A stretch of DNA of 64,000 nucleotides from Alphaproteobacteria bacterium (GCA_965206365.1 CBDBJL010000004.1:141144-205143); one strand, 5' to 3'. Counted from the first letter of the stretch, positions 6,582 through 41,340 are shown. Program-made: numbers and translations. The notes: generated by a model from the sequence alone, not told the origin.

Positions 6582-6655
6582 TATTCATTCTCTTTCATTT
6601 TCGTACTCACAGATATTACCAAGATTTACCAATTTCACAAGAAAAGAGGAGAAAA

Positions 6656-15802: not shown

Positions 15803-16834
15803 ATGCAGCAATACGGTAACGATAAGATTCTCTACTCACCATCGGACTTGGTCACCTTTTTAGGGTGTCACCATGCGAGCTTCCTTGATGTGAAGGCGCT
15901 GAGTGAGAGCATGGATAAGGCCGAGGCCAGCACCACAGGCCAACTATTGCAGCAAAAAGGCTTGGAGCATGAGGCGGCGTATCTCCAACAACTCAAAGAC
16001 GAAGGTAAGTCCGTCGTTGAAATCCCCAAAGACCGCAATTTGCAAGACCGCGCCCAGCTCACATTAGAGGCCATGCAGTCCGGTGCGGATGTCATTTATC
16101 AGGCCGTATTCTTTGCCCCGCCATGGCGAGGAGATGCCGATTTTCTGATTAAGTGCACTACGCCGTCCGACTTGGGTGATTTCAGCTATGAGGTGCTGGA
16201 TACCAAACTGGCACAAACAGCTGAGCCCAAGCATATCATGCAGCTTTGTGTCTATTCTGAGCTGCTGACTTACCTTCAGGGATTGCGCCCAGCTGATATG
16301 CATTTGTTTCTGGGCGATCATGAAAAACACAGCTTCCGCGTGGCAGACTTTTTCTATTACTACACCCGCGCTAAAGGCCGCTTTGAAACCTATCTGAAAA
16401 GCATGCCAGCAGACTCATATCCTGAGCCTTGCGGTCATTGTAATTTCTGTCCATGGCGCGAGGGCTGCAAAGCGCAGTGGGAACAAGATGATCATTTAAG
16501 CCTTGTGGCCAACATCCAACGCTCACAGATGGATAAGCTGCGGAAAGCTGGCATCTGCACCGTTGCGGAGCTTGCTGCCACAGCGCCTGACACCAAAATT
16601 CCTGATTTGAGCCGTGATGTGTTTTTACGCCTGCGTTCACAAGCCGTCCTGCAACATCACAAAGCCACCACGGGTGAAAATAAATGCGAGATCATTCCGT
16701 TCCCGCCGGGCAAAGGCTTTACCCGTATGCCAGTGCCTGATGATGGTGATCTGTTCTTTGATATGGAGGGCGATCCGCTTTACCCAAATGGTTTGGAATA
16801 TTTGTTTGGGGTCTATTATCGGAACGCGCCGTAA
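15803..16834 (+). pseudogene. N-terminal fragment of a RecB/Cas4-like (TM0106-family) nuclease-helicase gene, interrupted by an IS
   Basis: PD-(D/E)xK RecB-like region with Cys cluster (CGHCNFCPWREGC); reading frame terminated by IS605-family end sequence. Confidence 0.7.
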
Positions 16835-16874
16835 AACCTCGTCCTTCAGGGCGGGGATATAAGGCGCAACCGCG

Positions 16875-17297
16875 CTAGCGCGGTTTTTTGTTGGCTCGCT
16901 GCGTTTCGACATATTTGCGGATAATATCGAGCGGCGCACCACCACATGAAGCGGCAAAATAAGACGGCGACCAAAGGACACCTTTGCGATACCTACCCGT
17001 AATTTCAGGGCGAAAGCTTCGCAAACGGCGACTGGATACACCCTTGAGACTGTTGACCAGCTTAGAGAGGGATATTTTGGGCGGATAATTGATAAGCAGA
17101 TGCACATGGTCGTCTTCCCCGTCACACTCGACGAGTTGCGCCTCAAAGTCGTTGCAGACCTTGGCAAAGATGTGCCGCAAGTCCTGTATAGCCAGTTCTG
17201 ACAGCACATCTCTGCGGTATTTGGTAATAAATACCAAGTGTACGTGTAGCGCAAAAACACAATGTCTGCCTGTGCGATATTCATTTGAGTTGTCCAT
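16875..17297 (-). CDS. tnpA: IS200/IS605 Y1 (HuH) transposase
   Basis: HVHLLI (HuH) and catalytic Tyr region; track ORF extends to 17354 but the family-typical start is MDNSNEYRTGRH. Confidence 0.8.
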   Translation of the reverse strand: MDNSNEYRTGRHCVFALHVHLVFITKYRRDVLSELAIQDLRHIFAKVCNDFEAQLVECDGEDDHVHLLINYPPKISLSKLVNSLKGVSSRRLRSFRPEITGRYRKGVLWSPSYFAASCGGAPLDIIRKYVETQRANKKPR

Positions 17298-17319
17298 AGA
17301 CCAATGGTAGAGTCGAGAT

Positions 17320-18489
17320 ATGCTAAAGGCAACCAAAGTCCGATTGTATCCCACTGTTGACCAGAGGAAGGCGTTTGCCTTTCAATTTGGCGCGATGCGG
17401 TGGGCGTATAATTTTACTTTGGGCTGGCGTAGCTCCGCTTGGAAAGAGCGCGGCGAAAGCATCAGCAAGCGCCAGACCTTGGACAAGCTCGTTGAACTGA
17501 AAGCCACGGAAGAAACAGGCTGGCTAAAGGAAGCCGATAGCCAAGCCTTGCAACAATCGGTGATGCATTTGGATGATGCCTTTAAGCGATTTTTTAGAAA
17601 ACAGGGCCGCTATCCCCGCTTTAAGAGCAAACACGGCAAACAAGCCATGTCCTACCCGCAACGGGTCAAAATTGTAAATGGTGTCAGTCTGTACTTGCCC
17701 AAAGTCGGCACGGTCAAAGCAGTTCTGCACCGTGAGATTGTAGGTAAGATTAAGACCGTCACCATCTCGCGCACTCAAACAGGTAAGTACTATGCGTCAA
17801 TCTTGTGTGATGATGGGCTGGAGGTTCCAGCCCTCTTAAAAACGATTGAAGCGGACGCGGTGACGGGTATTGATTTGGGCATAACGCATTTAGCGATTGC
17901 CAGCACGGGTGAAAAACAAAAGAACCCCCGTATTTTGAAACGTGCGGCGGCCAATTTGCGCCGCAAGCAAAAAACACTGTCACGAAAGAAGAAAGGGTCG
18001 GCAAACCGCAACAAGGCGCGTGTACTTGTTGCCAAGGCTCACGAAAGAACTGCCAACACGCGCAATGACTTTCAACATAAATTGTCAAAACGACTGGTTG
18101 ACGAAAATCAAGCAATCTGCGTGGAGACGTTGAAAGTCAAAAACATGCTCAAGAATAGGAAGCTTGCCAAACATATCGCTGACGCGGCATGGGGCGAATT
18201 GCTCCGAAAGCTGACCTACAAAACAGCTTGGTCAGGTAAGCACCTCGTGCAAATTGACCAGTGGTTTGCATCCAGTAAGACCTGTTCTGATTGCGGCACT
18301 AAGGTTGATGCTATGCCGCTGTCGGTGCGGCAATGGACGTGCCAGACCTGCGACCAAGAGCATGACCGCGATATTAACGCTGCCATCAATATTCGGCAAC
18401 AAGGTATCCTGAAACTAAAGGCGGAAGGGCTATCCGTCTCTGCTTGTGGAGGCTCGCGTAATTCTGGCACACTGCCAGTTGCAGCCTGA
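17320..18489 (+). CDS. tnpB: IS605 OrfB/TnpB RuvC-like RNA-guided endonuclease
   Basis: RuvC-like motifs and C-terminal zinc finger CSDCG...CQTCD; 389 aa. Confidence 0.85.
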   Translation: MLKATKVRLYPTVDQRKAFAFQFGAMRWAYNFTLGWRSSAWKERGESISKRQTLDKLVELKATEETGWLKEADSQALQQSVMHLDDAFKRFFRKQGRYPRFKSKHGKQAMSYPQRVKIVNGVSLYLPKVGTVKAVLHREIVGKIKTVTISRTQTGKYYASILCDDGLEVPALLKTIEADAVTGIDLGITHLAIASTGEKQKNPRILKRAAANLRRKQKTLSRKKKGSANRNKARVLVAKAHERTANTRNDFQHKLSKRLVDENQAICVETLKVKNMLKNRKLAKHIADAAWGELLRKLTYKTAWSGKHLVQIDQWFASSKTCSDCGTKVDAMPLSVRQWTCQTCDQEHDRDINAAINIRQQGILKLKAEGLSVSACGGSRNSGTLPVAA

Positions 18490-20854
18490 GAAACAAGAAG
18501 CCTCGTCCTTTAGGGCGAGGAGTAGTCACTTCAAAGATGGTAAGGAGCTATTCCTTCCGTTCTGGGCGCATGATCATGAAGAAGAGAAAGAAACCTTTAA
18601 GCGCTTCATGGGTTTTTTAACCGATCATCTGGCTGAACACCCGCATGCCCATATCTATCATTACAACCATTATGAAACCACAGCCCTGAAACGCTTGGCC
18701 TGCCGTTATGCTGTGTGTGAGGAGCAGCTGGATAATCTGCTCCGCAATCAAAAATTCATTGATCTGTATCTGGTGGTACGTGAAAGCATCCGCACCTCTG
18801 AGCCCGGCTATTCCATCAAGAACATGGAAACATTCTATATGGATAAGCGAGCCAACGCTGTGGCGACTGCTGCTGATAGCATCATCGTCTATAACGAATG
18901 GCGCGAAACGGGCGCGGATGAATTGCTACAGGAAATTTCTGATTATAACGAGGTGGACTGCGTTTCCACGCATTTGCTGCGCGATTGGCTTCTCACGCTT
19001 AAGCCGGAAGATGCCCCTTGGTTTAAGGGCTTGCCTGAATATGCTGAGGAAGAAGAGCTACAACGCAAGGACTGGGAAATCGAATATGAGGATTACCAAA
19101 CCCGTCTTGGTGTGACCGAGGATAATCCACCGCCGATCAATGAGCGGCTATCCCATCTGCTGGAGTTTCATAACCGTGAAGCCAAACCACAATGGTGGAG
19201 CAGCTTTGAACGGCAGAACAAGTTTGAAGATGAACTAATTGACGATACGGAGTGCCTCGGAGGCTTGCAGCAGGTGGGCAGCCCAGAACCTGAAAAACGC
19301 TCCCTGATTTACAGCTACCGCTTCCCATCGCAGGAATACAAGCTGAAGGTTGGCGCACAGGCCGTTGATATTGCCGTCATGGAAAATGTAGGCACGATTG
19401 TCGAGATTGATGAAGATGCCTGCATCGTCAAAATCAAGCGCGGGGCCAACAAAGAGCCATTGCCGGAAAGCCTCTCCATTGGCCCACCGGGGCCGATTGA
19501 CAGCAAGATCATCCGCTCAGCCATTTACCGCTATGCCGATCATGTGTTGGAAGTGCCGGAAGGTACTCACGCCGCGACCGAATTGCTGGCACGCAATGTT
19601 CCGCGCATACAGGGCAAACAATCAGGTGAAGCGGTCATCACCTCTGATGATCTGCAAAGCGATGCGCTGGAAGCCATTGCTGCGTTAGATAACAGCTATC
19701 TCTTCATCCAAGGCCCGCCGGGCGCGGGTAAAACCTACACCAGCAGTCATATCATTGTGGACTTGATCAAGCGGGGCAAGAAAATCGGTGTAACCTCCAA
19801 CTCGCACAAAGCCATTCATAACTTGCTCGAAAAAGTGGAAAGCGTTGCCGCTGAAAAAGGCGTGAACTTCCATGGCATTAAAAAAGCCAGTGGCGGGAAT
19901 GATGAAACCATCTTCGATGGGCGATTCATCCGCTCAGAAACCAAGACCGACAATATGAGCCTTGGCGCTGATCTGTTTGCGGGTACCGCATGGACATTTG
20001 CCAGCCCACACTTTGATGGTCAGCTTGATTATCTGTTCATTGATGAGGCCGGACAAGTCGCCACGGCCAATGTGGTGGCGATGGCCACGGCAACCAAGAA
20101 CCTTATTCTGGTCGCTGACCAGATGCAATTGGGCCAGCCCATACAAGGCACTCACCCGGGTGAAGCCGGATTATCAGTGCTGGAATTCTTGCTGGGCGAT
20201 CATTCCACCATCCCGGCTGAGCGGGGTATTTTCCTTGGCCAGACACGCCGCATGCGCCCAACTATCTGCCAGTTTATCTCGGATGCCTTTTATGATGGCC
20301 GCCTGACAGCCCATGAGAGCACTGCTGAGCGCAGCTTGAACCTGCAAGGTGTTGATCTGCCCAATGAGGGGATTGTCATGATCCCGGCAGAGCATGAAGG
20401 CTGCTCACAAAAAAGCATCGAGGAAGGCGAAATCATCAAAGCTAAATATGATGCCTTGCTTGGCCAAGAATTTATCGACCGTGATGGAACCACACGCTCG
20501 ATCACCGAAGATGATATTCTGGTGGTCACCCCATACAATGTGCAGGTCAATTACCTACGTTCCATCCTGCCGGACAATGCTAAGGTCGGAACCGTTGATA
20601 AGTTTCAAGGCCAAGAAGCGCCCATTGTGCTGATTTCCATGGTGACATCCAGTGCCGAAGACCTGCCGCGCAATATTGAGTTCCTCTACAGCAAAAACCG
20701 TCTGAATGTTGCCGTTTCACGCGCACAATGTTTGGCCTTAGTGGTCGCCAATCCCAAACTGCTGGAAATCCCATGCGGCACTGTGGAGCAGATGAGATTG
20801 GTCAACACATTCTGCTGGCTGGATGAGTATGCTGAATCTGTTACAAGTAAATAA
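18446..20854 (+). pseudogene. C-terminal fragment of the same nuclease-helicase gene (RNase-H-like exonuclease domain plus SF1 Upf1-like helicase)
   Basis: First approx. 30 codons are IS right-end sequence; the genuine gene resumes near 18530 (DGKELFLPFWAHDHEEE); Walker A GPPGAGKTYT and AAA_11/AAA_12-type helicase motifs. Confidence 0.7.
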
Positions 20855-20859
20855 GAACT

Positions 20860-21350
20860 GAACAACTACCGACTTTCGTCGGTAGGTTCACGTTTTGAAT
20901 GTAATTCAAGATACTGACGAATAACGTCATCCGTCACATTTCCACTCGTCGTTGAAAAATAGCCTCTAGCCCAGAACCGTTGCCCCCAATAGCGTTTGCG
21001 TAATTCGGGGTACTCCCGCTGTATCTTGTATGAGGACCTCCCTTTTACGCGTTGCATCACCTTTGAAATTGGGACGTGCGGCGGGACTGACACAAACATA
21101 TGCACATGGTCGGTAGACAATACGCCTTTTTCAATGTGTACGCCCAATTCATTGCACGTTTGTCGTATCAATGTCCGAATACGCTCACGCATTTCACCAC
21201 GCAGCACCTTGTAACGATATTTTGTTACCCAAACGATATGGTATCTGTGATAATATCTGCTATGACTTCCAGTAGAATAGATCATAAGGTTTCCTTCCAT
21301 TTTAAGACCTTACCGCAACGCTGGGTCTTAAAATGGAAGGAAACCTTATG
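20860..21350 (-). mobile_element. solo IS200-like element
   Basis: tnpA flanked by a 26-bp perfect hairpin (21284-21309 / 21324-21349) on one side and a ctaccgac...gtcggtag hairpin (20868-20887) on the other. Confidence 0.7.
20866..21300 (-). CDS. tnpA: IS200 Y1 transposase
   Basis: HVHMFV HuH motif; typical IS200 TnpA length and sequence (YHIVWVTKYRYKVL). Confidence 0.85.
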   Translation of the reverse strand: MEGNLMIYSTGSHSRYYHRYHIVWVTKYRYKVLRGEMRERIRTLIRQTCNELGVHIEKGVLSTDHVHMFVSVPPHVPISKVMQRVKGRSSYKIQREYPELRKRYWGQRFWARGYFSTTSGNVTDDVIRQYLELHSKREPTDESR

Positions 21351-21400
21351 TAAATAACGCTAAAGCTGACCAGCTAAAAGCTGGTGGTTTTAACCAATTA

Positions 21401-23224
21401 TTGGAAAATAAATTTACGATAGATGAAGCATTCAGGGAGTGCTTTTATGTCGTGCCGGACTATCAACGCGAATATGTCTGGACAGAAAAGCAGATTACGC
21501 AGCTGCTTGAAGATATAAACGAGCAGATGGATAGCAGTTCGTCTGAATATTTTATCGGTACCATTCTCGTGTCCCCGCGAGATGGAGAAAAAGGCCATTA
21601 TGATGTTATAGACGGGCAGCAACGCCTAACTACAACCTTTTTGATTTTATGTGCCTTGAGAGTTCTTTTCAGTGGAATGCCGCAGGGGCAAATGATCAAT
21701 GGATTAACCGCCACCAGCTATACAGATGCACAAGGTGACATTAAAACCAATCTCAAACTTGAACCCAGATACGAAAATGCTGGGGAGGTTATAGAGAAGA
21801 TCGTTCAGGCCAACGGTGATCCGCAAGCCGTTCGTGCCAATATCCAAAGTTCCGGCATTCAGATTTATGGGTCTGTTGAGAATATATTGAACGCCTATGA
21901 TGTTATTTATCGCTTTTTGACCAATAACTATGACGACGAAGCCACGCTGAAAAAATATTGGGGCCATCTGGCCAATAACGTGGTTTTCATTCAAATCTCT
22001 ACGGACGTCAGCAGCGCATTAAAAATATTTGAAACAATTAATGAGCGCGGCGTTGGTCTGAATCCCATGGACCTTCTAAAGAATCTGTTGTTCACTCAGG
22101 TGTCACCAGAACGGTTCTCCCAGCTCAAAGATGAATGGAAAAAGATCACCAGCCCGCTCGAAAAAAACAAAGAAAAGCCACTTCGTTTCTTGCGTTACTT
22201 CCTCATGGCTAATTATGACATCAGGAACGAACGTAACGATGCGATTGTTCGCGAAGATGAGATTTATGATTGGTTCTCTAAGAAGGAAAATGCAGCCCTT
22301 ACAGGCTATCAGGAAAACCCCTTTGAATTTGTTCGGCAGATCACACGTAATGTAAATCGCTACATAGATTTCAGTAATGGGCTTGGCAATGACGGCAAAC
22401 CCAGTTTGGCGATGGACTCTCTTAAAAAACTAACAGGCGGCGCATTCAGTCTGCACTACGTCTTGCTGCTAGCGGCAGCGAATTTGCCAAAGCCACTATT
22501 TGATCAATTTGTGGCACAGCTCGAAAACTTCTTGTTCTTCTACATTTTCACCAAGACCCCAACCAAAGACCTTGAACGCAGCTTCTCGCTTTGGGCTGAT
22601 GAGGTCCGAGATATTGCTCAACTCGAAAATCCTGAAGAGCAGAGACAAAAACTCAATGATTTTGTGTCTGAACGTTTTGCTCAGAACATGGTCAAAAAGA
22701 CGCCAGAGCTTAAAGATGCATTGAAACGTTTGACGTTACACTCCATGCAGCAATACCGCACACGTTATTTGCTGGCACGCTTAACGCAGCATGTGGATAT
22801 GGCATTCAGTGGACAAAAGGTACGAGGAAGTCTTGACCCATATTTTAAATTAGAGATAGAGCACATCCTGCCTAACAACCCTGAAAATGATCTGCGAAAC
22901 ACATGGCAGGAAAAGCATCCAGAGCTGATTTATGATGAACACAAAAACCGCCTTGGCAATCTGACTCTGCTGGAGAAGCCCATCAATATTGTTGCTGGCA
23001 ATGACTTCTATGCAGGTAAAGTTTCTGAATATGCGAAGAGCGGCAATTACCTAACAAGAAGCCTTTCTGCTCTTGCTGAAGTTGGCCAAAACACATCTAT
23101 TTCCCGTATAAACGAAAAACTGTCCGTGTTTAAAAAATGGGATGCGGAGGACGTCGAAAGTCGGCAATTGCTACTGATCGCCTTAGCTCAAGAGATTTGG
23201 AAGACCACAGAAATTACAGCTTAA
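21401..23224 (+). CDS. GmrSD-like type IV restriction enzyme (DUF262 ParB-like N-domain plus DUF1524 His-Me C-domain)
   Basis: DGQQRLTT motif of DUF262; C-terminal EIEHILPNNP...HKNRLGNLTLLEK typical of DUF1524. Confidence 0.8.
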   Translation: MENKFTIDEAFRECFYVVPDYQREYVWTEKQITQLLEDINEQMDSSSSEYFIGTILVSPRDGEKGHYDVIDGQQRLTTTFLILCALRVLFSGMPQGQMINGLTATSYTDAQGDIKTNLKLEPRYENAGEVIEKIVQANGDPQAVRANIQSSGIQIYGSVENILNAYDVIYRFLTNNYDDEATLKKYWGHLANNVVFIQISTDVSSALKIFETINERGVGLNPMDLLKNLLFTQVSPERFSQLKDEWKKITSPLEKNKEKPLRFLRYFLMANYDIRNERNDAIVREDEIYDWFSKKENAALTGYQENPFEFVRQITRNVNRYIDFSNGLGNDGKPSLAMDSLKKLTGGAFSLHYVLLLAAANLPKPLFDQFVAQLENFLFFYIFTKTPTKDLERSFSLWADEVRDIAQLENPEEQRQKLNDFVSERFAQNMVKKTPELKDALKRLTLHSMQQYRTRYLLARLTQHVDMAFSGQKVRGSLDPYFKLEIEHILPNNPENDLRNTWQEKHPELIYDEHKNRLGNLTLLEKPINIVAGNDFYAGKVSEYAKSGNYLTRSLSALAEVGQNTSISRINEKLSVFKKWDAEDVESRQLLLIALAQEIWKTTEITA

Positions 23225-23430
23225 TGCGTTTCCTATGAATCCCAAACAGGGATTCGAACCCACGTTTGGTACGGTACTTTTGCCACGATGATTGAAGTCA
23301 TGCCAAGAGCAGAAATCAAAGCAGCATAAGGTGTTGCAACATAAAACTTGCTTTTCGTTGTTTTCAGGGCAATTATTTGTTGCAACACTATGGTAGGTGT
23401 AGAGGATTCGAACTCAAAGGGGTTCAATAC

Positions 23431-23480
23431 ACCGCCATTAGTTCTAATATATGCTCGCACTGAACCCAATGTGTATTTGA
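23431..23480. repeat. direct repeat copy 1 (approx. 46 bp, tRNA-like fragment context)
   Basis: ccgccattagttctaatatatgctcgcactgaacccaatgtgta is approx. 85% identical to 24187-24233; adjacent to T-arm-like ggattcgaac motifs at 23247-23260 and 23404-23415. Confidence 0.5.
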
Positions 23481-23545
23481 AATTTTTAACGGCTTATTTT
23501 AATTTTTCTTGCACACAATATTAAATTAGAAATAATTGCCCAAAA

Positions 23546-23800
23546 TTGCAAGGTGGCACGCGTGAATTACAAAAGATATTTTTTAAAAATATCCCTATTC
23601 CTAACATCACTGTAGATAATCAAAATATGGTTACCCAACTTGAAGATTTAACCAATCAAGCCTCAATCATCGACCCCGCAGATAAAATCCGCGATGACAC
23701 ACTTGGGCAAATTCAAATCCAAATCGACCAGCTGGTTTATCAGCTTTATGGGCTGAATGATGACGAAATTATCATCATCGAACAAAGCTTAAATATATAA
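23546..23800 (+). pseudogene. remnant resembling the C-terminus of a type IIG/BREX-type N6 methyltransferase or specificity protein
   Basis: C-terminal ...QIDQLVYQLYGLNDDEIIIIEQ matches the conserved LYGLT.EEI.IIE terminus of MmeI/PglX-like enzymes; no upstream catalytic domain present. Confidence 0.3.
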
Positions 23801-24186
23801 CCGTGCTGAATAAATCTATAAGCTTGTTATTAAAACCTTGTATGGCAAAGGAAATATAAAACATTGCTTATATTTCCCTGCATTAAATCTAAGCTATTCG
23901 CTTAAAACAATCCCTATTGGCCTTTTGGGGGATTATTGCCTCTACCACCACCAGAAGGTTTTCCAGTTGTAGAAGGACCATTAGGGGGAGGGGGGGTGCT
24001 CATAGTTTATATCCTTTTAAATGTTAAAATATATCGATAGCAATGCTATCAATGTTAGTATAACGCTAAATTTTATTTTTTTAAAATTATAAAAATCGTG
24101 GGTCCGATTCCCGTGCCAATCAACAAAGCTTGGGGGCTATTTGCTTATAATCGAATATCAACTATCAATGTGATAGTCGCTCTCTC

Positions 24187-24237
24187 CGCCATTAGCTCTT
24201 AATATCTGTTCGCACTGAACCCAGTATGTAGCATGCC
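24187..24237. repeat. direct repeat copy 2
   Basis: See copy 1. Confidence 0.5.
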
Positions 24238-24454
24238 ATACTTAAATTTTACAGATATTTATGAACTGGTCCGACAATTTTCTTGGCGCAATTTGTCTCA
24301 TCTCTCACAAATAATATTCTCGATCCTAGTACCCGACCTTGCAATATCGGAAACCTATCCACTGAAAGAGCAAAATCATACATAGCCTATCAGAAAATCT
24401 TTGCAAAACCGTAATTTTTTGATAAATTACCACTTATGCTTTAAGGCTTTGGAA

Positions 24455-24528
24455 GGTCTCGTAGCTCATCAGGATAGAGCGCCAGATTCCTAATCTGGAG
24501 GTAACAGGTTCGAGTCCTGTCGAGATCG
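24455..24528 (+). tRNA. tRNA-Arg (anticodon CCT)
   Basis: Hand-folded cloverleaf: acceptor ggtctcg/cgagatc, D-arm gctc/gagc, anticodon stem ccaga/tctgg with loop ttCCTaa, T-arm acagg-ttcgagt-cctgt, discriminator G; CCA not encoded. Confidence 0.85.
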
Positions 24529-24584
24529 CCCCTTTTATCTCATTCCCAAGAAAAACCCGCTTTTATGCCTAACGAATATTGCTC

Positions 24585-26990
24585 TTAAATATTTTCGCTA
24601 TAATTGCCACGTACCCTCTGTTTCGTCGGGTCAAAATGTGGAAATGGACAAATCGTTGCCGCAAGTTTTTTTTGCTTGCCATCTAACTGACCAACATCAA
24701 TTTCCGTACCGTGATTGGCATATGTAACATCCACCCGCGCCAAAGCAATGACCTTATCTAAGATTGGAGATCGGGTAGCTGACGTAATCTCTCCAACCTG
24801 AGCTTTCCCAACCCGTAAACAACTGCCTGCATCGGGTACCAAATTACCTGCAATATTCAACCCAACCAATTTTTTCTGCGGAGAAGCTTTACGCTTTGTT
24901 AACGCCTCACGGGAAATAAAATCACTCTTTTTAGATTTAAGTGGCACAGTAAAACCAATACCAGCTTCAAATGGATCCGTCTGATCACTAAATTCAGAGC
25001 CAGCAAAAATTAATCCCGCCTCAATTCGCAACATATCTAACGCTTCCAACCCTGCAGGCAACATCCCCAAAGGCTCGCCTTTAGCCCAAATCGCATCAAA
25101 AATTTGAACCGCATCACGCGGATGACAAAATACCTCATAGCCCAATTCGCCCGAATAACCCGTACGACTAACAATACATGCAACCCCTTGTTCATTACCC
25201 AATCGGGCAATAGAAAACCGAAACCAATCCAATTCACTCACATTCGATTGCGTAGATGCGCTCCAAAATAACTCTTGTAAAATATCCCGAGATCTCGGTC
25301 CTTGTACTGCAATATTACATAATTGTTCAGTAGAACATTTTACCCAAACATTCAAATTATGCTTGCTAGCTTGTTGTTGCAACCATAAACCACTATCATC
25401 TGTACCACCAACCCAACGAAAATTATTATCTCCCAACCGAAACACCGTACCATCATCAATCATACCACCATGTTCGTAACAGATCGCACTATAAACTACC
25501 TCGCCCACTGATATTTTCTGCACATCACGCGTGAGACAAAGTTGCATTAATTGCAATGCATCAGGACCTGTAATTTCATATTTACGCAAAGGTGATAAAT
25601 CCATCACGACAGCCTTTTCACGACAAGCCCAATATTCAGCAATTGCACCATGATTTGACATATTATTGGCAAGCCAATAACCATTATATTCACCAAAATT
25701 TTTCGTAAAGCGTGCAAAGCAACTATGAAAAGCACTTTCCTTAGTTTCAATCATTTCTTTCTCCACTGATTTCCGCCAACCAATAGACCGGCTAATCGGG
25801 TTATCTTTACGATAGGTTCGCACCTGAATATCGGTTGGATCCCAACCATTGGCTGGATCAATATCACACGGACAAGCAGTAGAAACACAAACCACATCAC
25901 TCATCGCTTGCAATAACACATAATCTCCGGCTCGTGACCAAGGATCATCCATACCAATCGCCTGACTACTATCCAATAAAGTATTAAAAAAAAAATTAAT
26001 ACTTACCCAGCCTTTGCGAGGTTTAATATCGTAGCGAGCCAATTTTAAATTTATATTATCGGTACAATTAACATGCCCCGGATAACCCATATCTTCATAA
26101 TAACGAGCAGTACAAGCCAAACCAAACGTATCATGTCGCCCACAAGTATCTTGAATAATCTCAATTAATGGTACCTGATGATACGAATAATATTTCGAAT
26201 AGATCCCAGGAGTTGGATACAAAGCTCCCATCAAGCTTCGCGTTGTGGTGGGATCAATTTCACAAACCTCTCCCCGATCCAAACCCGCTTTCGAAAAAGC
26301 CTGAAAATCAGAACATTCGCGCCCTTGCACATCCAAAATTTGAATATAATCACCTGCTGCAACTTCATAAGTCACGGCATTGCCAGGCTGAATATTAACA
26401 TCTATTATTGGATCATAAAGCGGTTCGGGTGGTAGTAACCGATCAGCCTTTTCGCCGGGAGCACTACGTGTAATATAAAGAATAATTTCACTGGCCACAT
26501 TCTGCTGATCAACCGCCATATCATAGGCTGGCACAACAACAATCAGCCAGCATGTCGCCTGAGCATAATATTCTTCCTGAGCTTCAGCGACACTCTGCAT
26601 ATCGAACGCAATCGAGGCACTTAATCCATTCACATCGATTCCGCATTGTTGCAAAACTGTTTTTAATCGCATCGATGCCATATCATTTTTTTGTGCCAAA
26701 ATTTGTTTCAAGCCAATGGCATCCCGACTGTTCTTAGCCCCGATCAACCCAGAATCAACGGTACCATCTTCACCAAAAGCAAGTAATTCGGCAATCTGCG
26801 CCCCATCAGAATTAATCAAAGTTACCTGATCTCCCGCTTCTAATTTTACAGTACGTGAGCAACCCGGCGCAACAACATAACGTTCTACCCCATGGGGTAA
26901 AATCGGCATAGCAGGTGTGAATATTCCATTTTTCACATTATTGTAATATCGAACATCAAACCCATTCATAGTCTCAATCCTTTCACTCAA
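24585..26990 (-). CDS. tdm: trimethylamine N-oxide demethylase-like (DUF1989 N-domain fused to GcvT aminomethyltransferase domain)
   Basis: 801 aa; C-terminal half has the glycine-cleavage T fold (SRTGYSGELGYEV); this domain pair matches Tdm. Confidence 0.75.
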   Translation of the reverse strand: MSERIETMNGFDVRYYNNVKNGIFTPAMPILPHGVERYVVAPGCSRTVKLEAGDQVTLINSDGAQIAELLAFGEDGTVDSGLIGAKNSRDAIGLKQILAQKNDMASMRLKTVLQQCGIDVNGLSASIAFDMQSVAEAQEEYYAQATCWLIVVVPAYDMAVDQQNVASEIILYITRSAPGEKADRLLPPEPLYDPIIDVNIQPGNAVTYEVAAGDYIQILDVQGRECSDFQAFSKAGLDRGEVCEIDPTTTRSLMGALYPTPGIYSKYYSYHQVPLIEIIQDTCGRHDTFGLACTARYYEDMGYPGHVNCTDNINLKLARYDIKPRKGWVSINFFFNTLLDSSQAIGMDDPWSRAGDYVLLQAMSDVVCVSTACPCDIDPANGWDPTDIQVRTYRKDNPISRSIGWRKSVEKEMIETKESAFHSCFARFTKNFGEYNGYWLANNMSNHGAIAEYWACREKAVVMDLSPLRKYEITGPDALQLMQLCLTRDVQKISVGEVVYSAICYEHGGMIDDGTVFRLGDNNFRWVGGTDDSGLWLQQQASKHNLNVWVKCSTEQLCNIAVQGPRSRDILQELFWSASTQSNVSELDWFRFSIARLGNEQGVACIVSRTGYSGELGYEVFCHPRDAVQIFDAIWAKGEPLGMLPAGLEALDMLRIEAGLIFAGSEFSDQTDPFEAGIGFTVPLKSKKSDFISREALTKRKASPQKKLVGLNIAGNLVPDAGSCLRVGKAQVGEITSATRSPILDKVIALARVDVTYANHGTEIDVGQLDGKQKKLAATICPFPHFDPTKQRVRGNYSENI

Positions 26991-28935
26991 TCCCCAATAA
27001 TCGTTTCCGTTTTTCCGACCAAAGCAAAATTAAATGATCCGCCATCAGCCCCATAAAGGCTACACATAATCCCAATACCATCCCTTTTCCGACATCGGTA
27101 GAGGATAGCGCACGTTGCATTTCTTGTCCTAAATCTTGCGTACCAATAAAAGCAGCAATAATCACCATAAAAAGCGAAAATAAAATACATTGATTCAACC
27201 CGACCATAATCGTGGGAATGGCAATTGGCATTTGTACCAATTTTAATTTCTGCCAACCGCTTGCCCCCGACATATCCGCCACTTCTACCATAGTGGTAGG
27301 AACAGTACGCAACCCTTCAATCGTATAGCGCGTCATTGGTGCCATGCCAAACGCCACCACTGCGCCAATGGCTGCAACATCATTAACACCAAATAGCATA
27401 ATAACAGGAATCAAATAAATAAAACTAGGGAAGGTTTGCGCAGTATCGCAAATCAATAAAACAATTTTTGCCCGTTTTTCTTTCCGCGCCGCCCATATTC
27501 CCAAAGGCAAACCCATAATCATCGCCAAAAACACTGCGATACTCACCATATAAGCCGTAATCATTGCCCGATCCCACCAACCAGAGGCGGCAATCGCTGC
27601 GAAAAATAAAAAACAAATAATGGCTGAACGCCTACCTCCAATTAACCAACCAATCCCGCCCAGAAAAAGCAATACTGTCGTGAAAGGTAACCAAAGATAG
27701 AAATTTCGATAAGGTATCAGGACAAATTTGATTAAAAATCCCCGAAGAGCATAAGTGAACGGACCCAGCTGAGTAACAATATAATCCACCACCAGGTCTA
27801 GATCTTTTGAAATCGTGAAACCACTAGTCCGTTTAATTTCATAAGCATAATCCCAAAATTGTGCCAGTATAAATAATATCGCAACACTCAAAACCCAAAT
27901 TACCCAATAAAAATTTCGTTGATGCCATGGCGTACCACGTGCAAAATGAATCGGTTGTTTGTAAGCCCAAGCCTTTGAGCACCGATCCAATACAATCGCA
28001 AGCAACACAATCGTGATCCCAATTTCAATCGAACGCCCAATTTTTAAACTTTGCAACAATTGTAACAATTTATATCCCAAACCTGGCATTCCAATGAAAC
28101 TTGCCAACACCACCATCGCCAAACATTGCATAATCACCTGATTAACACCAATAATCAGTTCAGTTCTTGCACTTGGGATCCAAACATGGCGTAACAACTG
28201 CCATTTATTGGTTCCACACATCCGACCATTTTCAACCAACTCTGCTGGAACTTTTTTCAAACCCAAAATAACCATTCGGATCATGGGTGGGGTGGCAAAA
28301 ATGATCGTAACAATTGCACCGGCTTTCGGCCCCACTCCAATAAATACTACTACCGGAATCATATAAGCAAAATGGGGTAGTGATTGCGCAATATTCAAAA
28401 TTGGATTGAGAATACGTTCAAATTTGTGATTTCTCCAAGCCAAAATACCAACAATCAACCCTAAAAATACACCAAATGGAACCACAACTACAAGCACCGA
28501 TAAGGTTTCCATTGCCAATTTCCATTGCCCTAAAAGAGCAATCCACACAAAAGTACCACCCGATAAAAGCGACAAACGCCAGCCCCTTAATGCGTGACCA
28601 AGGATAAAAAGCGAAGCAGCAACCACTGTCCAGGGAATCTGATCGAACCTTGGCCAGCGATTTTTACCATAAAGCAAATTCGAAACCACATCGATCAACC
28701 ATTCAATCACTGCAGCAAAGTCACGTGTGATATAGACAAGACCCAAATCATCCTTAATAAAGAAAAATAATCCGTTAATCCAATCGGCAAAAGGTAACAC
28801 CATCCAATCTAAAGGGCGTATTAAAAAGTCGGGGAGTATAATCTTAAATATAGCCAACACAACAGCCAAACCAATAACCCCATAAGCAACATTTTGCTGA
28901 TGAGTATTGGATTTTATATCAAATGGTACCTTCAT
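26983..28935 (-). CDS. tmoW: ABC transporter permease with duplicated permease domains (betaine/TMAO type)
   Basis: Two BPD-type permease modules each with an EAA-like loop; 650 aa; overlaps the tdm start. Confidence 0.75.
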   Translation of the reverse strand: MKVPFDIKSNTHQQNVAYGVIGLAVVLAIFKIILPDFLIRPLDWMVLPFADWINGLFFFIKDDLGLVYITRDFAAVIEWLIDVVSNLLYGKNRWPRFDQIPWTVVAASLFILGHALRGWRLSLLSGGTFVWIALLGQWKLAMETLSVLVVVVPFGVFLGLIVGILAWRNHKFERILNPILNIAQSLPHFAYMIPVVVFIGVGPKAGAIVTIIFATPPMIRMVILGLKKVPAELVENGRMCGTNKWQLLRHVWIPSARTELIIGVNQVIMQCLAMVVLASFIGMPGLGYKLLQLLQSLKIGRSIEIGITIVLLAIVLDRCSKAWAYKQPIHFARGTPWHQRNFYWVIWVLSVAILFILAQFWDYAYEIKRTSGFTISKDLDLVVDYIVTQLGPFTYALRGFLIKFVLIPYRNFYLWLPFTTVLLFLGGIGWLIGGRRSAIICFLFFAAIAASGWWDRAMITAYMVSIAVFLAMIMGLPLGIWAARKEKRAKIVLLICDTAQTFPSFIYLIPVIMLFGVNDVAAIGAVVAFGMAPMTRYTIEGLRTVPTTMVEVADMSGASGWQKLKLVQMPIAIPTIMVGLNQCILFSLFMVIIAAFIGTQDLGQEMQRALSSTDVGKGMVLGLCVAFMGLMADHLILLWSEKRKRLLGIE

Positions 28936-28940
28936 AATCT

Positions 28941-29987
28941 TTAACCTAATAAAATATCTAACATTTTTTCCCGCGAAACCGCACCAATAATTTTCTTCTT
29001 ATGATCACAAACTGGGATAATTTCACGGATATCATTCATAAGATCATGAGAAACATTATGAATAGGATCTGTCGCCTTAAATGGAGCTTCCTTATCCGTA
29101 CATTGTAATTTTTTATCTATAAGAGCACCAACAGTTACGATTCGTGCTTGATAAACTTCCTCAGTAAAACGCTTAACATAATCGTTGATCGGGTTCAGTA
29201 ATAGATTGGCTGGCAGGTCAATTTGTTGAATCGCACCATCTTTCATAATCGCAATCCGATCCGCTAGACGCAGTGCCTCATCAAAATCATGCGTAATAAA
29301 AACAATCGTTTTTTTAAGCATCTGTTGCAACCGGATAAATTCATCTTGCATATCACGCCGAATTAAAGGGTCTAAGGCGGAAAAAGGCTCATCTAAAAAC
29401 CAAATATCAGGTTCGATAGCCAATGAACGAGCAATCCCTACCCGCTGTTGTTGTCCACCCGACAACTCCCGCGGAAAATAATTTTCTCTACCCTCAAGCC
29501 CAACCAACTTAACCATCTCAATGGCACGGGCATAGCAATCATGTTTGTCTTGGCCACGCATCTCAAGTGGAAAGGAAACGTTTTCAAGCACATTACGATG
29601 CGGTAACAAAGCAAAATTCTGAAACACCATCCCCATTTTGCTACGCCGCAACTCAATCAGATCCTGTTCACTCAAAGCTCCTAAATCCTGCCCTTCTACC
29701 ATAATCGTACCTGAAGTAATATCAATCAATCGCGATAAACAACGCACCAAAGTTGATTTCCCTGAGCCCGACAAACCCATAATGACTAGAATTTCACCCT
29801 CAAAAATATCTAATGACACATCATGCACTGCAGCAATATAGCCATCATCTTGAATGCTCTGAAAATCAGTATTCGCATCGCATGACTGCATGTATCGGTC
29901 TGGATTTTCACCATAAAGCTTCCAGATACCCCGGCAGTTAATAACTGCTGTTGAGGATTCAGATGATGTTTTAACCATAGCGAGCAC
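28941..29987 (-). CDS. tmoV: ABC transporter ATP-binding protein with C-terminal CBS domains (ProV/OpuAA-like)
   Basis: Walker A GLSGSGKST, signature LSGGQQQRV, Walker B IWFLDEP; CBS pair at the C-terminus. Confidence 0.85.
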   Translation of the reverse strand: MLAMVKTSSESSTAVINCRGIWKLYGENPDRYMQSCDANTDFQSIQDDGYIAAVHDVSLDIFEGEILVIMGLSGSGKSTLVRCLSRLIDITSGTIMVEGQDLGALSEQDLIELRRSKMGMVFQNFALLPHRNVLENVSFPLEMRGQDKHDCYARAIEMVKLVGLEGRENYFPRELSGGQQQRVGIARSLAIEPDIWFLDEPFSALDPLIRRDMQDEFIRLQQMLKKTIVFITHDFDEALRLADRIAIMKDGAIQQIDLPANLLLNPINDYVKRFTEEVYQARIVTVGALIDKKLQCTDKEAPFKATDPIHNVSHDLMNDIREIIPVCDHKKKIIGAVSREKMLDILLG

Positions 29988-30047
29988 CCCTTCATTCTTA
30001 TTTTTCGATGATTAAGGTAATTTTTACTACCAAAATATTATTTTTAT

Positions 30048-30086
30048 ATTAATGCCACCCCACCTTAAAAATGAGGTGGCATTAAT
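30048..30086 (-). terminator. intercistronic stem-loop between tmoX and tmoV (attenuator or partial terminator)
   Basis: 12-bp stem attaatgccacc/ggtggcattaat with 15-nt loop, followed on the minus strand by an A/T-rich run. Confidence 0.35.
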
Positions 30087-30101
30087 GATTAGGTTAAGTT
30101 T

Positions 30102-31079
<978 letters not shown>

Positions 31080-31245
31080 TTAAGGAAACTATATATTTAA
31101 CACCTTAAGTTCCAATGATCCAGTGAATTCAAATTAAAACCACCATACAACAAAACCGTAATACTTAATATATATTCTCCAAGTTAATAATCAGGGTATA
31201 AAACCTTTGATGGTTTATTACCCCATTTCCACAAAACTTGCAATC

Positions 31246-31261
31246 GCAATATTTTGTAAAA
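31246..31261. promoter_or_regulatory. perfect CRP/FNR-type box TGTGA-N6-TCACA upstream of tmoX
   Basis: tgtgaccattgtcaca lies approx. 190 bp upstream of the tmoX start codon. Confidence 0.4.
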
Positions 31262-31286
31262 ATTCTTTAAAAATTTGTGACCATTG

Positions 31287-31886
31287 TCACACATTTTCCA
31301 GATCCTGCATAATTGGCTGATTCGTTGTTGAAGTAACCCAATCAGGACAAAAACTAATTATGACAACATCTTTGGATAAATTCGGATTAAACATATGATT
31401 ATGCCACCAGCTCGCCTGATAAAAAAAACTATCTGTCTGCAACTGCTTTGCCTGACAGCAAAGCGAATATTCCTGAGTATAGGCACTGAAATGAAGCCGA
31501 CAAGCTTGACTCGCCAAAATTTGCCTAGCCCCTACTGATTCAGGCGCGAAAACTGCCGTCAGCTGATCAGAAAATTCATCTATATGCTGATAATAATATT
31601 CACTAAAAAATTTCAAGGCCTTATCGCGTCGTTGCATCAAATCATGTGTATGCCTAACAATATGCCTGAGCTCAGGTAATTTGGAAAAATCATCTGTTTT
31701 ATTTAAAATCGTTATAATATGACCGAGCGATCTGCCTTGAGAAGCCTTATTAGGGTCTAAAGTCACAATTGGCATCATCCCATCGCTCGGTCGTCCATCT
31801 TTTTCACGCACAGATATTTGGCGCACTCGACATTGCCAACGTAAAAACGACTCTTTAAGCCTTTCACCATACACAACATCTTTCAT
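31287..31886 (-). CDS. hypothetical protein within the methylamine operon
   Basis: 199 aa; co-directional and tightly spaced with the mgs genes; no recognised domain. Confidence 0.4.
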   Translation of the reverse strand: MKDVVYGERLKESFLRWQCRVRQISVREKDGRPSDGMMPIVTLDPNKASQGRSLGHIITILNKTDDFSKLPELRHIVRHTHDLMQRRDKALKFFSEYYYQHIDEFSDQLTAVFAPESVGARQILASQACRLHFSAYTQEYSLCCQAKQLQTDSFFYQASWWHNHMFNPNLSKDVVIISFCPDWVTSTTNQPIMQDLENV

Positions 31887-31920
31887 ACATTAAACTCCGT
31901 AACCATGATATCGTAACTGC

Positions 31921-32334
31921 TCAACGCTTAATATAAGCATGACGCAATTTTACCAAAGGATGTTTCTTCGACATCTGAAATTTCACCAACAATTCCCGCG
32001 CAATCATATCACGATCTTGCTGATTATCCGGCAATGAAATTGTATCGGGCACACGCACCCAACCATTAATATTACGGTCAAAAACTGCGGCATTGCCATC
32101 CTCATACCCCATATGAATATCTTCTAGCCAATTTAGATCTACCCAACCCATCACTTCCAAATATTTTTTTAAGAAAGGGGTAAGACAATCATAATCTGGT
32201 ACCAAATTTACATCATAACGATAGCCAATATGTTGGCCAATTTCTTTTTCACGTTCGCTCTCCAAGCCTTCCTTATCTTCCAGGAATTGATCCACACCTT
32301 TCAACTCAGAGCCACGATATTCTTTTCCAGCCAT
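31921..32334 (-). CDS. hypothetical protein within the methylamine operon
   Basis: 137 aa; 16 bp downstream of mgsC. Confidence 0.4.
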   Translation of the reverse strand: MAGKEYRGSELKGVDQFLEDKEGLESEREKEIGQHIGYRYDVNLVPDYDCLTPFLKKYLEVMGWVDLNWLEDIHMGYEDGNAAVFDRNINGWVRVPDTISLPDNQQDRDMIARELLVKFQMSKKHPLVKLRHAYIKR

Positions 32335-32350
32335 TTGTTAATCTCCTCTT

Positions 32351-33718
32351 CTACAGATGATGATAATCTTCGATCCCGACCGTGTGATTTGTTCCTGCCA
32401 AAGGAACTCCTGCAATTGCCGAAGCTTCCATTGTCAGAGCTGCCAAATCTTCTGGTTCTAAGGAATGTAAATTAGTTTTTCCACAAGCACGGGCAAATAG
32501 TTGCGCCTCAATGGTAAGGGTATGCAAGAAATTATAAACCCGTTCGGCCGCTTCATCAGGATTAAGCCGTTTACGAAGTACTGGATCTTGCGTTGCCACA
32601 CCCACCGGACAACGTCCAGTATGGCAATGGTAACAATAGCCCGGTTCTACACCCATTTCTTCTTGAAAATTCGCTTCATCAATATCCTTATTGCAATTAA
32701 GTGCCATCATCATAGAATGCCCAAGTGCAATCGCATCGGCTCCCAACGCAATGGCCTTCGCCACATCGGCACCATTACGAATTCCACCAGCATAGACCAA
32801 ACTAACTTGGCCTCTTTTTCCAAGATCATCAATGGCTTTACGTGCCTGCCTAATTGCAGCCATCCCCGGAACACCCGTATCCTCTGTTGCCAAATGTGGC
32901 CCAGCACCAGTACTGCCTTCCATGCCATCAATATAGATACTATCTGGATCGCATTTCACTGCCATACGAACATCATCGTAAACGCGCGCCGCACCTAATT
33001 TAAGCTGAATAGGAATTTGCCAATCTGTAACTTCGCGAATTTCTTGAATTTTCAATGCTAGATCATCCGGACCCAACCAATCAGGATGCCGAGCCGGAGA
33101 ACGCTGATCGATACCAGCTGGCAAACTCCGCATCTCAGCTACCTGATCCGTAACCTTTTGCCCCATCAAATGGCCACCCAAACCTACTTTGCAACCTTGA
33201 CCGATGAAAAATTCACACCCATCTGCCAACATTAAATGATGTGGGTTAAAACCATACCGCGATTGAATACATTGGTAAAACCATTTTGAACTATACCGTC
33301 TCTCATCAGGAATCATCCCACCTTCACCCGAACAAGTAGCCGTACCAGCCATCGTGGCTCCACGCGCCAAAGCTGTTTTTGCCTCATAGGAAAGTGCCCC
33401 GAAACTCATTCCAGTTACATAAACTGGAATATCTAACTTCAAAGGGTGCTTGGCCCGAGGACCAATAACCGTTTTCGTTTCGCATTTTTCCCGATACCCC
33501 TCAATTACAAACCGAGTAAGTGTGCCGGGTAAAAAGGTTAAATCATCCCAATGCGGTATTTTCTTAAACAACGAAAAGCCCCGCATCCGATAGCGACCCA
33601 ATTCCGCTTTAATATGAATATCATCAATCACATGAGGTGGAAAAACAAAAGAATTTCCCAATCGATTGACATCTCTATTCAAGGTTTTTTTAACTTTGCT
33701 CATATCGTTTCCATCCAT
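32351..33718 (-). CDS. mgsC: N-methylglutamate synthase subunit C (glutamate-synthase FMN-binding domain)
   Basis: GltS FMN-binding TIM-barrel signature (GGTGA, Cys cluster CYHCHTGRCP). Confidence 0.7.
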   Translation of the reverse strand: MDGNDMSKVKKTLNRDVNRLGNSFVFPPHVIDDIHIKAELGRYRMRGFSLFKKIPHWDDLTFLPGTLTRFVIEGYREKCETKTVIGPRAKHPLKLDIPVYVTGMSFGALSYEAKTALARGATMAGTATCSGEGGMIPDERRYSSKWFYQCIQSRYGFNPHHLMLADGCEFFIGQGCKVGLGGHLMGQKVTDQVAEMRSLPAGIDQRSPARHPDWLGPDDLALKIQEIREVTDWQIPIQLKLGAARVYDDVRMAVKCDPDSIYIDGMEGSTGAGPHLATEDTGVPGMAAIRQARKAIDDLGKRGQVSLVYAGGIRNGADVAKAIALGADAIALGHSMMMALNCNKDIDEANFQEEMGVEPGYCYHCHTGRCPVGVATQDPVLRKRLNPDEAAERVYNFLHTLTIEAQLFARACGKTNLHSLEPEDLAALTMEASAIAGVPLAGTNHTVGIEDYHHL

Positions 33719-33719
33719 T

Positions 33720-35515: not shown

Positions 35516-35567
35516 CCCCCATTACTCCTTTTCCAATTCATTGTTCAAAATTAATTACTCTAAAATC

Positions 35568-40930: not shown

Positions 40931-41028
40931 GGCGGCAATATCGCGTACCTTATCAATATTATAAATATTAGGATATTTAGAATCTTCAGATTTCTTTTTT
41001 ACTGCATTGTTAAATGAAAGATGGTATG

Positions 41029-41340
41029 CTTTAAGGTGGCAGTGATGTGCGACTATCTGCGAAGTGCTACGATATGGTGCGATGAGGTTGATTCCTGAAT
41101 AGATATTAAACTGCTATAATTACCTATAAATGCTTATAAACAAGGCTTCTAAGCTGTAAGGCTTGGTTTAAGATTATTCATAAACTGCCATAAAACGTGC
41201 TTCAAGTGGCTTATTTTTTTGCTTTTGCAACATGGCAGTCTCGAAATTTAGAAAACTAAAAAAAAACTTTTAAACCCTATATTTTAGGGTTTTGATTTCT
41301 AACATGGCAGTCGAAATCATCTTAAGGTGGCAGTTTAATT
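41029..41340. repeat. cluster of short direct repeats with a CGAAA core (candidate Mu-type transposase-binding sites at the prophage terminus)
   Basis: Exact 13-mer ttaaggtggcagt at 41029 and 41321; exact 12-mer aacatggcagtc at 41229 and 41301, both followed by (t)cgaaat; inverted copy aactgccat at 41183. Confidence 0.4.

Follow-up and report, generated by a model that had tools for sequence, protein, structure and literature searches.

What kind of boundary separates a phage-derived defence island from its host, when the DNA between them is AT-rich and carries tRNA-like fragments, direct repeats and a piece of a methylase gene, is the question raised by positions 23225-24454 of the window (the whole 64,000-nucleotide stretch of alphaproteobacterial DNA analysed here). 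The original prediction regarded this segment as an integration hotspot next to a tRNA-Arg gene. Our analysis indicates that it is probably the junction of a prophage-like defence island with the host, formed at an integration site that is linked to tRNA-Ser and has served repeatedly. Such a footprint of repeated integration is of an ordinary, known kind and is not a new type of element.

Genomic setting of the junction

The window begins within a prophage, with phage tail genes located at 20-5247. Toward the junction they are followed by a type I restriction-modification system, the gene of a RecB-like nuclease/helicase, interrupted by a 1710-bp TnpB insertion, an IS200 transposase gene and, finally, the gene of a GmrSD-type restriction endonuclease (21401-23224, + strand; Pfam GmrSD_N and GmrSD_C); a lysozyme-homologous segment is also among the island contents. 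GmrSD is the final cargo gene of the island and occupies a variable slot, with the helicase gene on one side and a conserved end module on the other. This module stops at 23440, which bears out the statement that the defence island ends in this region and sets its right boundary exactly at that position. No Pfam integrase or recombinase domain was found among the ORFs scanned at 1-23224; IS-type transposases, TnpB and IS200 TnpA, were present.

On the host side, a spacer (24231-24454, GC 0.35), for which blastn against plasmids, phages and the loci fetched for comparison revealed no similarity, leads to tRNA-Arg(CCT). The latter is intact, as had been stated, and lies at 24455-24530 on the + strand; it is the single tRNA called in the window by ARAGORN and Rfam (65 bits). 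To the right of the junction there are genes of a GCV_T/DUF1989 fusion and a betaine ABC transporter, N-methylglutamate-pathway-like genes and, farther on, a Mu-like prophage.

The base composition does change here, as the original prediction noted, but not in a single abrupt step: GC declines gradually from ~0.50 (15.8-21.3 kb) through 0.435 (the GmrSD gene) to 0.37 (the region of interest) and is 0.41 on the host side; GC skew is strongly negative to the right of ~24.5 kb. Several left-side proteins have many near-identical relatives (at least 90% identity; the other assemblies concerned bear the labels Kiloniella sp. and Rhizobiaceae bacterium), whereas each right-side (core) protein stands alone at 90% identity among 15 billion collected proteins; thus, there are close sequenced relatives for the island and none for the host. 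With blastn against plasmids and phages, the region as a whole gave no relatives. Homologues of GmrSD, ~72% identical, occur in 35 viral loci, where the downstream DNA is unrelated. An empty site in related genomes, proposed as a check, was sought by scanning contigs for the GCV_T fusion protein; this provided relatives, of at most 63% identity, sharing no intergenic DNA with the window.

The module at the end of the island

The end of the island is defined by comparison with related loci. Look-up of the intact 1122-aa version of the split helicase yielded L116-L119, whose DNA is ~89% identical to the backbone in the window; the homology returns at window positions 23333-23440 and halts at ...ACACCGCCA in all of them. 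Past this point there are three different continuations, one in the window, one in L117 and one in L116, L118 and L119. Metagenome contigs scanned for the last 22 nt of the 23333-23440 stretch gave 28 loci with the module end and 20 distinct outer flanks, several of which open with terminator-like hairpins, as would be expected downstream of a tRNA gene.

The module as a whole comprises ~215 bp (23226-23440) and ends with ...TCAATACACCGCCA. A profile built from 19 distinct copies detects it in the window with an nhmmer E value of 4.5e-60, and the window copy is 79-91% identical to the long-form copies elsewhere and 75% identical to the short form. The module and the coding backbone are similarly conserved (86% vs 89%). 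Both boundaries of the module are sharp: in the copy alignments the inner one is as sharp as the outer one, and the cargo beyond it differs by locus. The module is always located at the outer edge, its orientation relative to the helicase backbone and cargo being constant wherever the sequence is long enough, and in at least 13 loci the helicase gene, its remnant or its upstream region lies 0-7.7 kb inward. The slot carries GmrSD and IS200 in the window, Czc efflux genes in L147, arsenic/mercury-type genes in L138 and polysaccharide genes in L125 and L139; in L116 it holds no cargo. The window has a single copy of the module, and a second, degenerate copy, sought beside the right-hand direct repeat, was not found. 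In L138 there are two modules 7 kb apart in direct orientation, hence tandem arrays do occur among these islands. L130 and L140, both from GCA_012263305.1, represent two copies in different contexts within one assembly. The searchable end ...GGATTCGAACNCAAAGGGGNTCAATACACCGCCA delimits, on the outer side, the variable cargo slot of islands of the marine alphaproteobacterial type and could serve to harvest cargo, defence genes included, from metagenomes.

The module encloses both copies of the T-arm-like motif GGATTCGAAC (A at the inner end and B at the outer end) and a conserved hairpin at 23331-23388 (inverted repeat I1, fold z-score -2.9), which contains two copies of the palindrome TGTTGCAACA. 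The ends of the module are partial inverted copies of each other around TTCGAA, and in the short-form modules B contributes the head and A the tail. The hairpin is kept in the relatives without compensatory changes: for 17 module copies RNAalifold predicted 17 pairs, none of which had changes on both sides. No Rfam match to the module was found. With thresholds relaxed to 75-85%, ARAGORN reported tRNA-like folds in the inner half of the module in 14 of 19 copies, the anticodons being inconsistent. The hairpin may be a candidate protein-binding site.

In our interpretation the module would be the att arm of the island, because it occupies the outer edge, carries repeated motifs and palindromes, is conserved like the backbone and lacks compensatory changes. 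Such an arm would hold putative sites for the recombinase or accessory proteins, namely the repeated GGATTCGAAC, the TGTTGCAACA palindromes and the terminal inverted repeat. The role of a binding arm is what we infer, because the T-arm-like motifs are imperfect and the module shows no compensatory changes.

Several other identities were considered for the module and rejected, namely a two-piece tmRNA, an integron attC site, a Mu/Tn7 transposon end and an IS200/IS605-derived repeat. ARAGORN and Rfam made no call, the L138 copies are in direct orientation, an inverted second end is absent from the loci examined, and the long direct repeats of L147 are tied to tRNA-Ser. The notion that the - strand of B forms a tRNA minihelix with a CCA end was likewise discarded: the CCA pairs with the 5' UGG of the module, covariation is missing, and the alignment with tRNA-Ser is on the + strand.

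The link to tRNA-Ser

The motif GGATTCGAAC occurs exactly twice in the 64 kb (23250-23259 and 23404-23413), whereas 0.07 copies would be expected. The original prediction took the two sites for T-arm-like fragments of tRNAs. The motifs are real; however, both lie within the conserved module and are therefore parts of one island element rather than independent scraps, nor do they form good T-arms, as the T-stems of the T-arm-like motifs in the window have at most 3 of 5 pairs. Motif A (23246-23264, - strand) can be read as the T-arm within a degenerate stretch similar to a tRNA; its stem, GCAGG/CCTGC, is perfect in the L116-type subfamily. Motif B belongs to the outer module end (23391-23440, + strand), where the last ~50 nt of the module resemble the variable arm, T-arm and CCGCCA 3' end of tRNA-Ser. 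The alignment of this end with tRNA-Ser(GGA) and tRNA-Ser(CGA) has 13 matches in 16 positions, and that score was equalled by 0.3% of shuffles.

Two further features had been overlooked. The first is motif C (24096-24112, + strand), TCGTGGGTCCGATTCCC, followed by GTGCCA; it matches the T-arm of tRNA-Ser(GGA) at 14 of 17 positions (1.3% of shuffles equal that score), has a 16-mer in common with motif A, the two copies being inverted, and may be a further degraded 3' fragment of tRNA-Ser. The other is CTCTCCGCCA at 24182-24191 on the + strand, which is the exact 3'-terminal 10 nt of a tRNA-Ser gene and occurs once in the window. Elsewhere, in L116-L147, each CTCTCCGCCA forms the 3' end of a called tRNA-Ser, with the exception of L127, where it ends a T-arm-bearing tRNA-like sequence rather than a called tRNA. 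Motifs A, B and C were not recognised as tRNA by ARAGORN (in the window, with thresholds down to 85%) or Rfam, and when 24060-24195 was searched for the remains of a complete tRNA-Ser, nothing but motif C and the terminal 10-mer stood out. The displaced 3' fragment of tRNA-Ser and the module-end alignment, in the same orientation as the tRNA, correspond to one of the features of the Islander signature.

As to tRNA-Arg, no second copy of its 3' half was found within the window. The island lies 5' of this gene; the tRNA involved is tRNA-Ser and not tRNA-Arg, the latter being the next host gene and not the integration target.

A further connection between the module and tRNA-Ser is provided by L147. 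In this locus an intact tRNA-Ser(GGA) comes after the host genes pheT and lepA; the sequence past its CCGCCA end is found again over at least 170 nt, with 85-90% identity, directly beyond the module 9.7 kb downstream, so that a regenerated intact tRNA is seen here at the opposite end of the island. Extending at least 170 nt past the tRNA, this repeat exceeds the length of a classical att core, and duplication or homologous recombination, rather than site-specific integration, could have produced it.

In L116-L119 genes of large serine recombinases (441-546 aa) adjoin the module, and this arrangement looks like an attP or a tandem junction. The recombinases located beside the module in the relatives are of the large serine type, an observation to be counted against the reading of the junction preferred here.

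Direct repeats and the stump between them

Past the module the window contains two direct repeats of the att type, DR1 (23432-23475, + strand), which starts at the terminal CCGCCA of the module, and DR2 (24186-24230, + strand), directly preceded and overlapped by CTCTCCGCCA. The original prediction had recorded repeats of approximately 85% identity at this place; with slightly corrected coordinates, they match at 39 of 45 alignment columns (87% identity) with one indel. Their alignment score is 63, whereas shuffled sequences gave a mean of 27.8 and a maximum of 39.5. DR2 is located 755 bp farther into the low-GC side than DR1. A third copy was not found in the window, nor was the repeat pattern found in the metagenome and viral collections. 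Comparison with tRNA genes, which had also been suggested as a check, agreed with the prediction in that the repeats begin with the 3'-terminal CCGCCA of tRNA-Ser. They flank the methylase stump, as the att core does in the Islander signature.

The stump has a GC content of 0.33-0.36 and carries, on the + strand, a pseudogene (23477-23800, delimited by tblastn and HMM) of the C-terminal ~107 codons of an Eco57I/TaqI_C (type IIG-like) N6-adenine methylase. An 84-aa ORF at 23546-23800 (P0001 in the gene calls of the source record) matches in phmmer the extreme C-termini of 530-1291-aa proteins carrying Eco57I, N6_Mtase/MmeI_Mtase and TaqI_C domains, so the type IIG methylase remnant predicted at these positions was correctly recognised. 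The homology runs further upstream, across an in-frame TAA (23522-23524), to ~23477, and the family HMM matches 23465-23794 with 110 bits. The 5' truncation point of the fragment coincides with the end of DR1. Other parts of such a methylase gene were not found anywhere in the window: tblastn with full-length homologues gave 23408/23477-23797 only, besides weak matches to the unrelated HsdM gene. The remnant has neither the N6-adenine methyltransferase catalytic domain nor an intact reading frame. Judged by its sequence, it is a dead C-terminal tail that cannot function, because the tail alone is left, the catalytic and nuclease domains are gone and there is an in-frame stop. P0001 should be treated as a pseudogene tail.

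The small ORF with a G-rich tract

The stump also includes a 29-codon Pro/Gly-rich ORF, MSTPPPPNGPSTTGKPSGGGRGNNPPKGQ. The ORF had been placed at complement 23916-24014; it does exist on the - strand, its coordinates being 23914-24003. Similarly, the poly-G tract that it overlaps, GGGGGAGGGGGGG, is present, though at 23984-23996 and not at 23995-24007, and corresponds to the C7TC5 run of the ORF. We consider it almost certain that this is a chance ORF, which gives no grounds for annotation.

The opposite view, that it is a real gene of a small Pro/Gly-rich peptide, phase-variable through the homopolymeric C tract, appears highly improbable to us, even though the ORF has an ATG start with a GGA-containing Shine-Dalgarno-like sequence ~9 nt upstream, the C7TC5 run comes directly after the start codon, and, besides the G-rich 13-mer here, the 64 kb contain a single further G- or C-rich 13-mer locus of this kind. 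Upstream of the ORF there are a sigma-70-like promoter match (24085-24057) and a hairpin (24053-24033); promoter-like matches, however, are no more frequent in the region than in shuffled sequences (4 found vs 5.2 expected). The exact 29-aa peptide is absent from ~15 billion collected predicted proteins, and no relative was found either by tblastn of the peptide against the phage collection or by blastn of the region against plasmids, phages and the fetched loci. Besides, the ORF is situated in a decayed stump, and frame shifts in the tract, with the sequence read by eye, would lengthen it to ~38 codons at most.

Integration history and alternative explanations

Taken together, these features suggest the following structure of the junction. 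The island would occupy window positions 1-23440 and end in the module, the outer end of which, ...CCGCCA, resembles the 3' half of tRNA-Ser. Past the module there would be DR1 and then a 0.7-kb stump of a second integrated element (23476-24181), consisting of the truncated methylase, non-conserved AT-rich DNA with the 29-codon ORF and a T-arm-like scrap, followed by the displaced tRNA-Ser end with DR2 (24182-24230), the host spacer and tRNA-Arg. Site-specific recombination at the tRNA-Ser 3' end would thus have inserted two elements in tandem, and one of them would later have decayed by deletion; a deletion from just inside the att repeat into the methylase gene would fit the start of the fragment at the DR1 end. 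The intact tRNA-Ser and the integrase would then be located past the left edge of the window. The arguments for a repeatedly used, tRNA-Ser-linked site are as follows: the exact tRNA-Ser 10-mer stands before DR2, as the CCGCCA end of the module does before DR1; the methylase fragment, which has an in-frame stop, starts exactly at the end of DR1; the end of the module can be aligned with the tRNA-Ser 3' half, L147 has the tRNA-Ser repeat, and L138 has the double module; relatives share the backbone and the module end and have differing flanks, and the cargo differs inside the module. Against it stands the fact that neither an intact tRNA-Ser nor an integrase was found within the window. As for a tandem array, two or three tDNA-like fragments are present with a 0.7-kb stump, which has no integrase and is therefore a decayed remnant and not a scorable member of such an array. 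Thus, integration, decay and tRNA-derived repeats near a tRNA, which the original prediction proposed, are retained, while the neighbouring tRNA-Arg gives way to tRNA-Ser.

The repeats could alternatively be viewed as two coding leftovers of a tandem or paralogous pair of type IIG methylases decayed in place, and not as att sites. Positions 23459-23475 of DR1 can indeed also be aligned as methylase coding sequence, which we count against our main reading; with P0002, P0038 and P0058 the pairwise tblastn alignments do not stop at 23477 but continue in frame through DR1, as far back as 23408-23459; and weak colinear tblastn matches of methylase C-termini lie past DR2 (24221-24393, E 0.8-14). However, the match of the methylase family HMM does not start before 23465, near DR2 there is no match with a cut-off as lax as E 100, and the methylase-like 23408-23440 (SNSKGFNTPP) is the conserved island module, present in methylase-free loci as well. 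With the 1-nt indel of DR2, which breaks the reading frame, and the terminal 10-mer of tRNA-Ser preceding this repeat, decay of a methylase pair in place seems to us quite unlikely. It is hardly less unlikely that the module is an autonomous unit and not an att arm; such a unit could be the gene of a tRNA-like small RNA, or else a MITE-like mobile repeat that has subterminal inverted repeats and inserts by itself. Its two sharp ends, partly inverted copies of each other around TTCGAA, the short forms composed of a B head and an A tail, the occurrence in two contexts of one assembly (L130 and L140) and the tRNA-like folds seen by ARAGORN in 14 of 19 copies under relaxed thresholds would agree with such a unit; the constant orientation relative to the helicase backbone and cargo, a conservation not above that of the coding backbone, the absence of compensatory change in all 17 pairs, the inconsistent anticodon calls, the lack of an Rfam family match, the single copy in the window and the geometry of L147, linking the outer end to tRNA-Ser, would not.

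The difference in GC and GC skew between the two sides, together with the left-side proteins having relatives of at least 90% identity (Kiloniella sp., Rhizobiaceae bacterium) and the right-side singletons, might also be taken to indicate an assembly chimera, in which an alphaproteobacterial prophage of ~47-50% GC was joined to an unrelated genome of 41% GC. This is very improbable, because DR1 and DR2 tie the two sides together: a local repeat common to both, located at the module and 755 bp farther on and 87% identical, would not be made by a chimeric join. Moreover, the GmrSD gene (0.435) and the stump (0.33-0.36) grade into the GC content of the host.

Returning to the tRNA-Ser-linked junction, one may ask which enzyme would recognise the module. 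That it functions as a tRNA-Ser-mimicking recombination arm of large serine recombinases is, in our opinion, unlikely. Were it true, these islands would represent a phage/island family in which serine integrases target a tRNA gene at its 3' end, and the module would, in addition, hold in place a cargo-exchange hotspot immediately inward of it. Action of serine recombinases at this site would also extend the range of targets known for these integrases. The recombinases known to target tDNAs are of the tyrosine type, and targeting of tRNA genes by serine recombinases was not known as of 2014 (PMC4383910).

Comparison with known systems

For islands integrated into tDNAs, the signature of a tDNA with a displaced 3' fragment, as well as tandem island arrays, is well established (PMC4383910); a tDNA-derived repeat stands at both junctions of such elements, and the arrays result from repeated use of one site. 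As in Islander-type islands, the direct repeats considered here start with the tRNA 3' end, the displaced tRNA-Ser fragment is oriented as the repeat, foreign cargo lies between the repeats, there is more than one scar per site, and in L147 tRNA-Ser is found at one end and its repeat at the other. Unlike them, the window contains no intact tRNA-Ser or integrase, the repeat of L147 extends at least 170 nt past the tRNA, the copy of the tRNA 3' half that the island itself carries is degenerate, and the recombinases near the module in relatives belong to the serine type.

The methylase remnant resembles the Eco57I-family (type IIG-like) methylase/restriction enzymes, which are gamma-class N6-adenine enzymes with TaqI_C as specificity domain, in that its last ~107 codons are 40-54% identical to their extreme C-terminus, including the IPIP...IDQLVYQLYGL...EI.IIE tail, and differs from them in that the tail alone is left, with an in-frame stop and without the methylase catalytic and nuclease domains.

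Hotspots of defence and other cargo genes are situated near the att end of temperate phages and their satellites, such as P2 and P4. The islands described here are similar in having a variable slot between conserved backbone segments, namely the end module and the 3'-terminal part of the helicase gene, with cargo differing by copy; however, they belong to another phage lineage, their cargo goes beyond defence, and the slot was defined by comparing ~20 loci. In the attP sites of temperate phages, multiple binding sites for the recombinase and accessory factors are located in an arm beside the core. The putative sites of the module differ from these in resembling tRNA T-arms, its inner half being similar to a whole, degenerate tRNA on the opposite strand. 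Like attP, the ~215-bp non-coding module adjoins the crossover point, contains repeated motifs and palindromes, and is conserved despite the differing cargo.

Cargo slot and backbone of the island

The interval that separates the 3' end of the island backbone's helicase gene from the 215-bp end module (the conserved sequence that terminates the island) is a cargo hotspot, ranging in size from 0.5 to 7.7 kb in the window and in related metagenome loci. In the window (20855-23225) this slot holds an IS200 TnpA gene and GmrSD; in locus L147 (6784-14240) it is occupied by genes of Czc/CDF metal efflux and in locus L138 by ACR3, DUF6428 and MerA-like genes, while in locus L116 (13370-13720) there is almost no cargo. 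The helicase gene itself, encoding a RecB-like nuclease/RNase H/SF1 helicase (15803-20854), is interrupted in the window by an insertion sequence of 1710 bp (16820-18529), whereas in the relatives it is undisrupted and encodes a protein of 1122 aa. The sole gene of this element encodes a TnpB (17320-18489), identical to Kiloniella sp. WP_419901410.1 and present on 24 contigs.

Two further features of the island were observed. Compared with L116 (6-1349), the window (4694-7068) contains an extra 1-kb segment between the tail and lysozyme segments, which codes for a COG2958-family protein (5628-6581, minus strand) that clusters with a Kiloniella sp. protein at 90% identity. Within the type I restriction-modification operon, in the interval between hsdR and hsdS, there is an ORF with a Bro-N domain (10875-11726); the equivalent position in relatives is taken by a RhuM-family gene.

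Host side and Mu-like prophage segment

To the right of the island, the region 24531-37000 is a block of minus-strand genes, across which GC skew takes strongly negative values, from -0.2 to -0.35. The block includes a GCV_T/DUF1989 fusion, a betaine ABC transporter and glutamine synthetase-like, GATase, GXGXG and Glu_synthase genes, the last four resembling the N-methylglutamate pathway. Across 185,579 species genomes, identity to the closest GCV_T relatives reaches only about 63%. Further right, at approximately 41000-52900, there is a prophage segment of the transposable, Mu-like kind, which bears no relation to the island on the left and encodes a DUF5131 protein (41351-42100) and a transposase with the rve, Mu-transpos_C and HTH_Tnp_Mu_1 domains (49027-51210).

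Module variants and adjoining recombinases

Within the module (23331-23388), the palindrome TGTTGCAACA occurs as two perfect copies 46 bp apart, which pair as a hairpin with a 12-bp stem (z-score -2.9). This hairpin, kept in every long-form copy of the module, may be a binding site of a regulator or a recombination factor. A short form of about 55 nt, found in L120-L122, L127, L136 and L137 (e.g., L122, 2664-2717), consists of the head of the outer (B) end fused to the tail of the inner (A) end, the join being at the T-loop-like motif. In L122 an intact tRNA-Ser(CGA) follows the short form at a distance of 155 bp downstream. L138 carries two modules in direct orientation on the minus strand (7205-7226 and 14194-14215), 7 kb apart and separated by metal-resistance cargo and a helicase remnant; the pair looks like a decayed tandem array of the same island type.

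In relatives, the segments adjoining the module (L116, 13932-15946; L117, 13135-16061; L118, 13133-15147) contain a gene of a large serine recombinase (441-546 aa), often accompanied by DUF2924, and represent two distinct flank types. The join between the module and these segments is either an attP-like junction or the boundary with a second phage in tandem. If the large serine recombinases do act at the tRNA-Ser-like end of the module, such a target would be unusual for that family.
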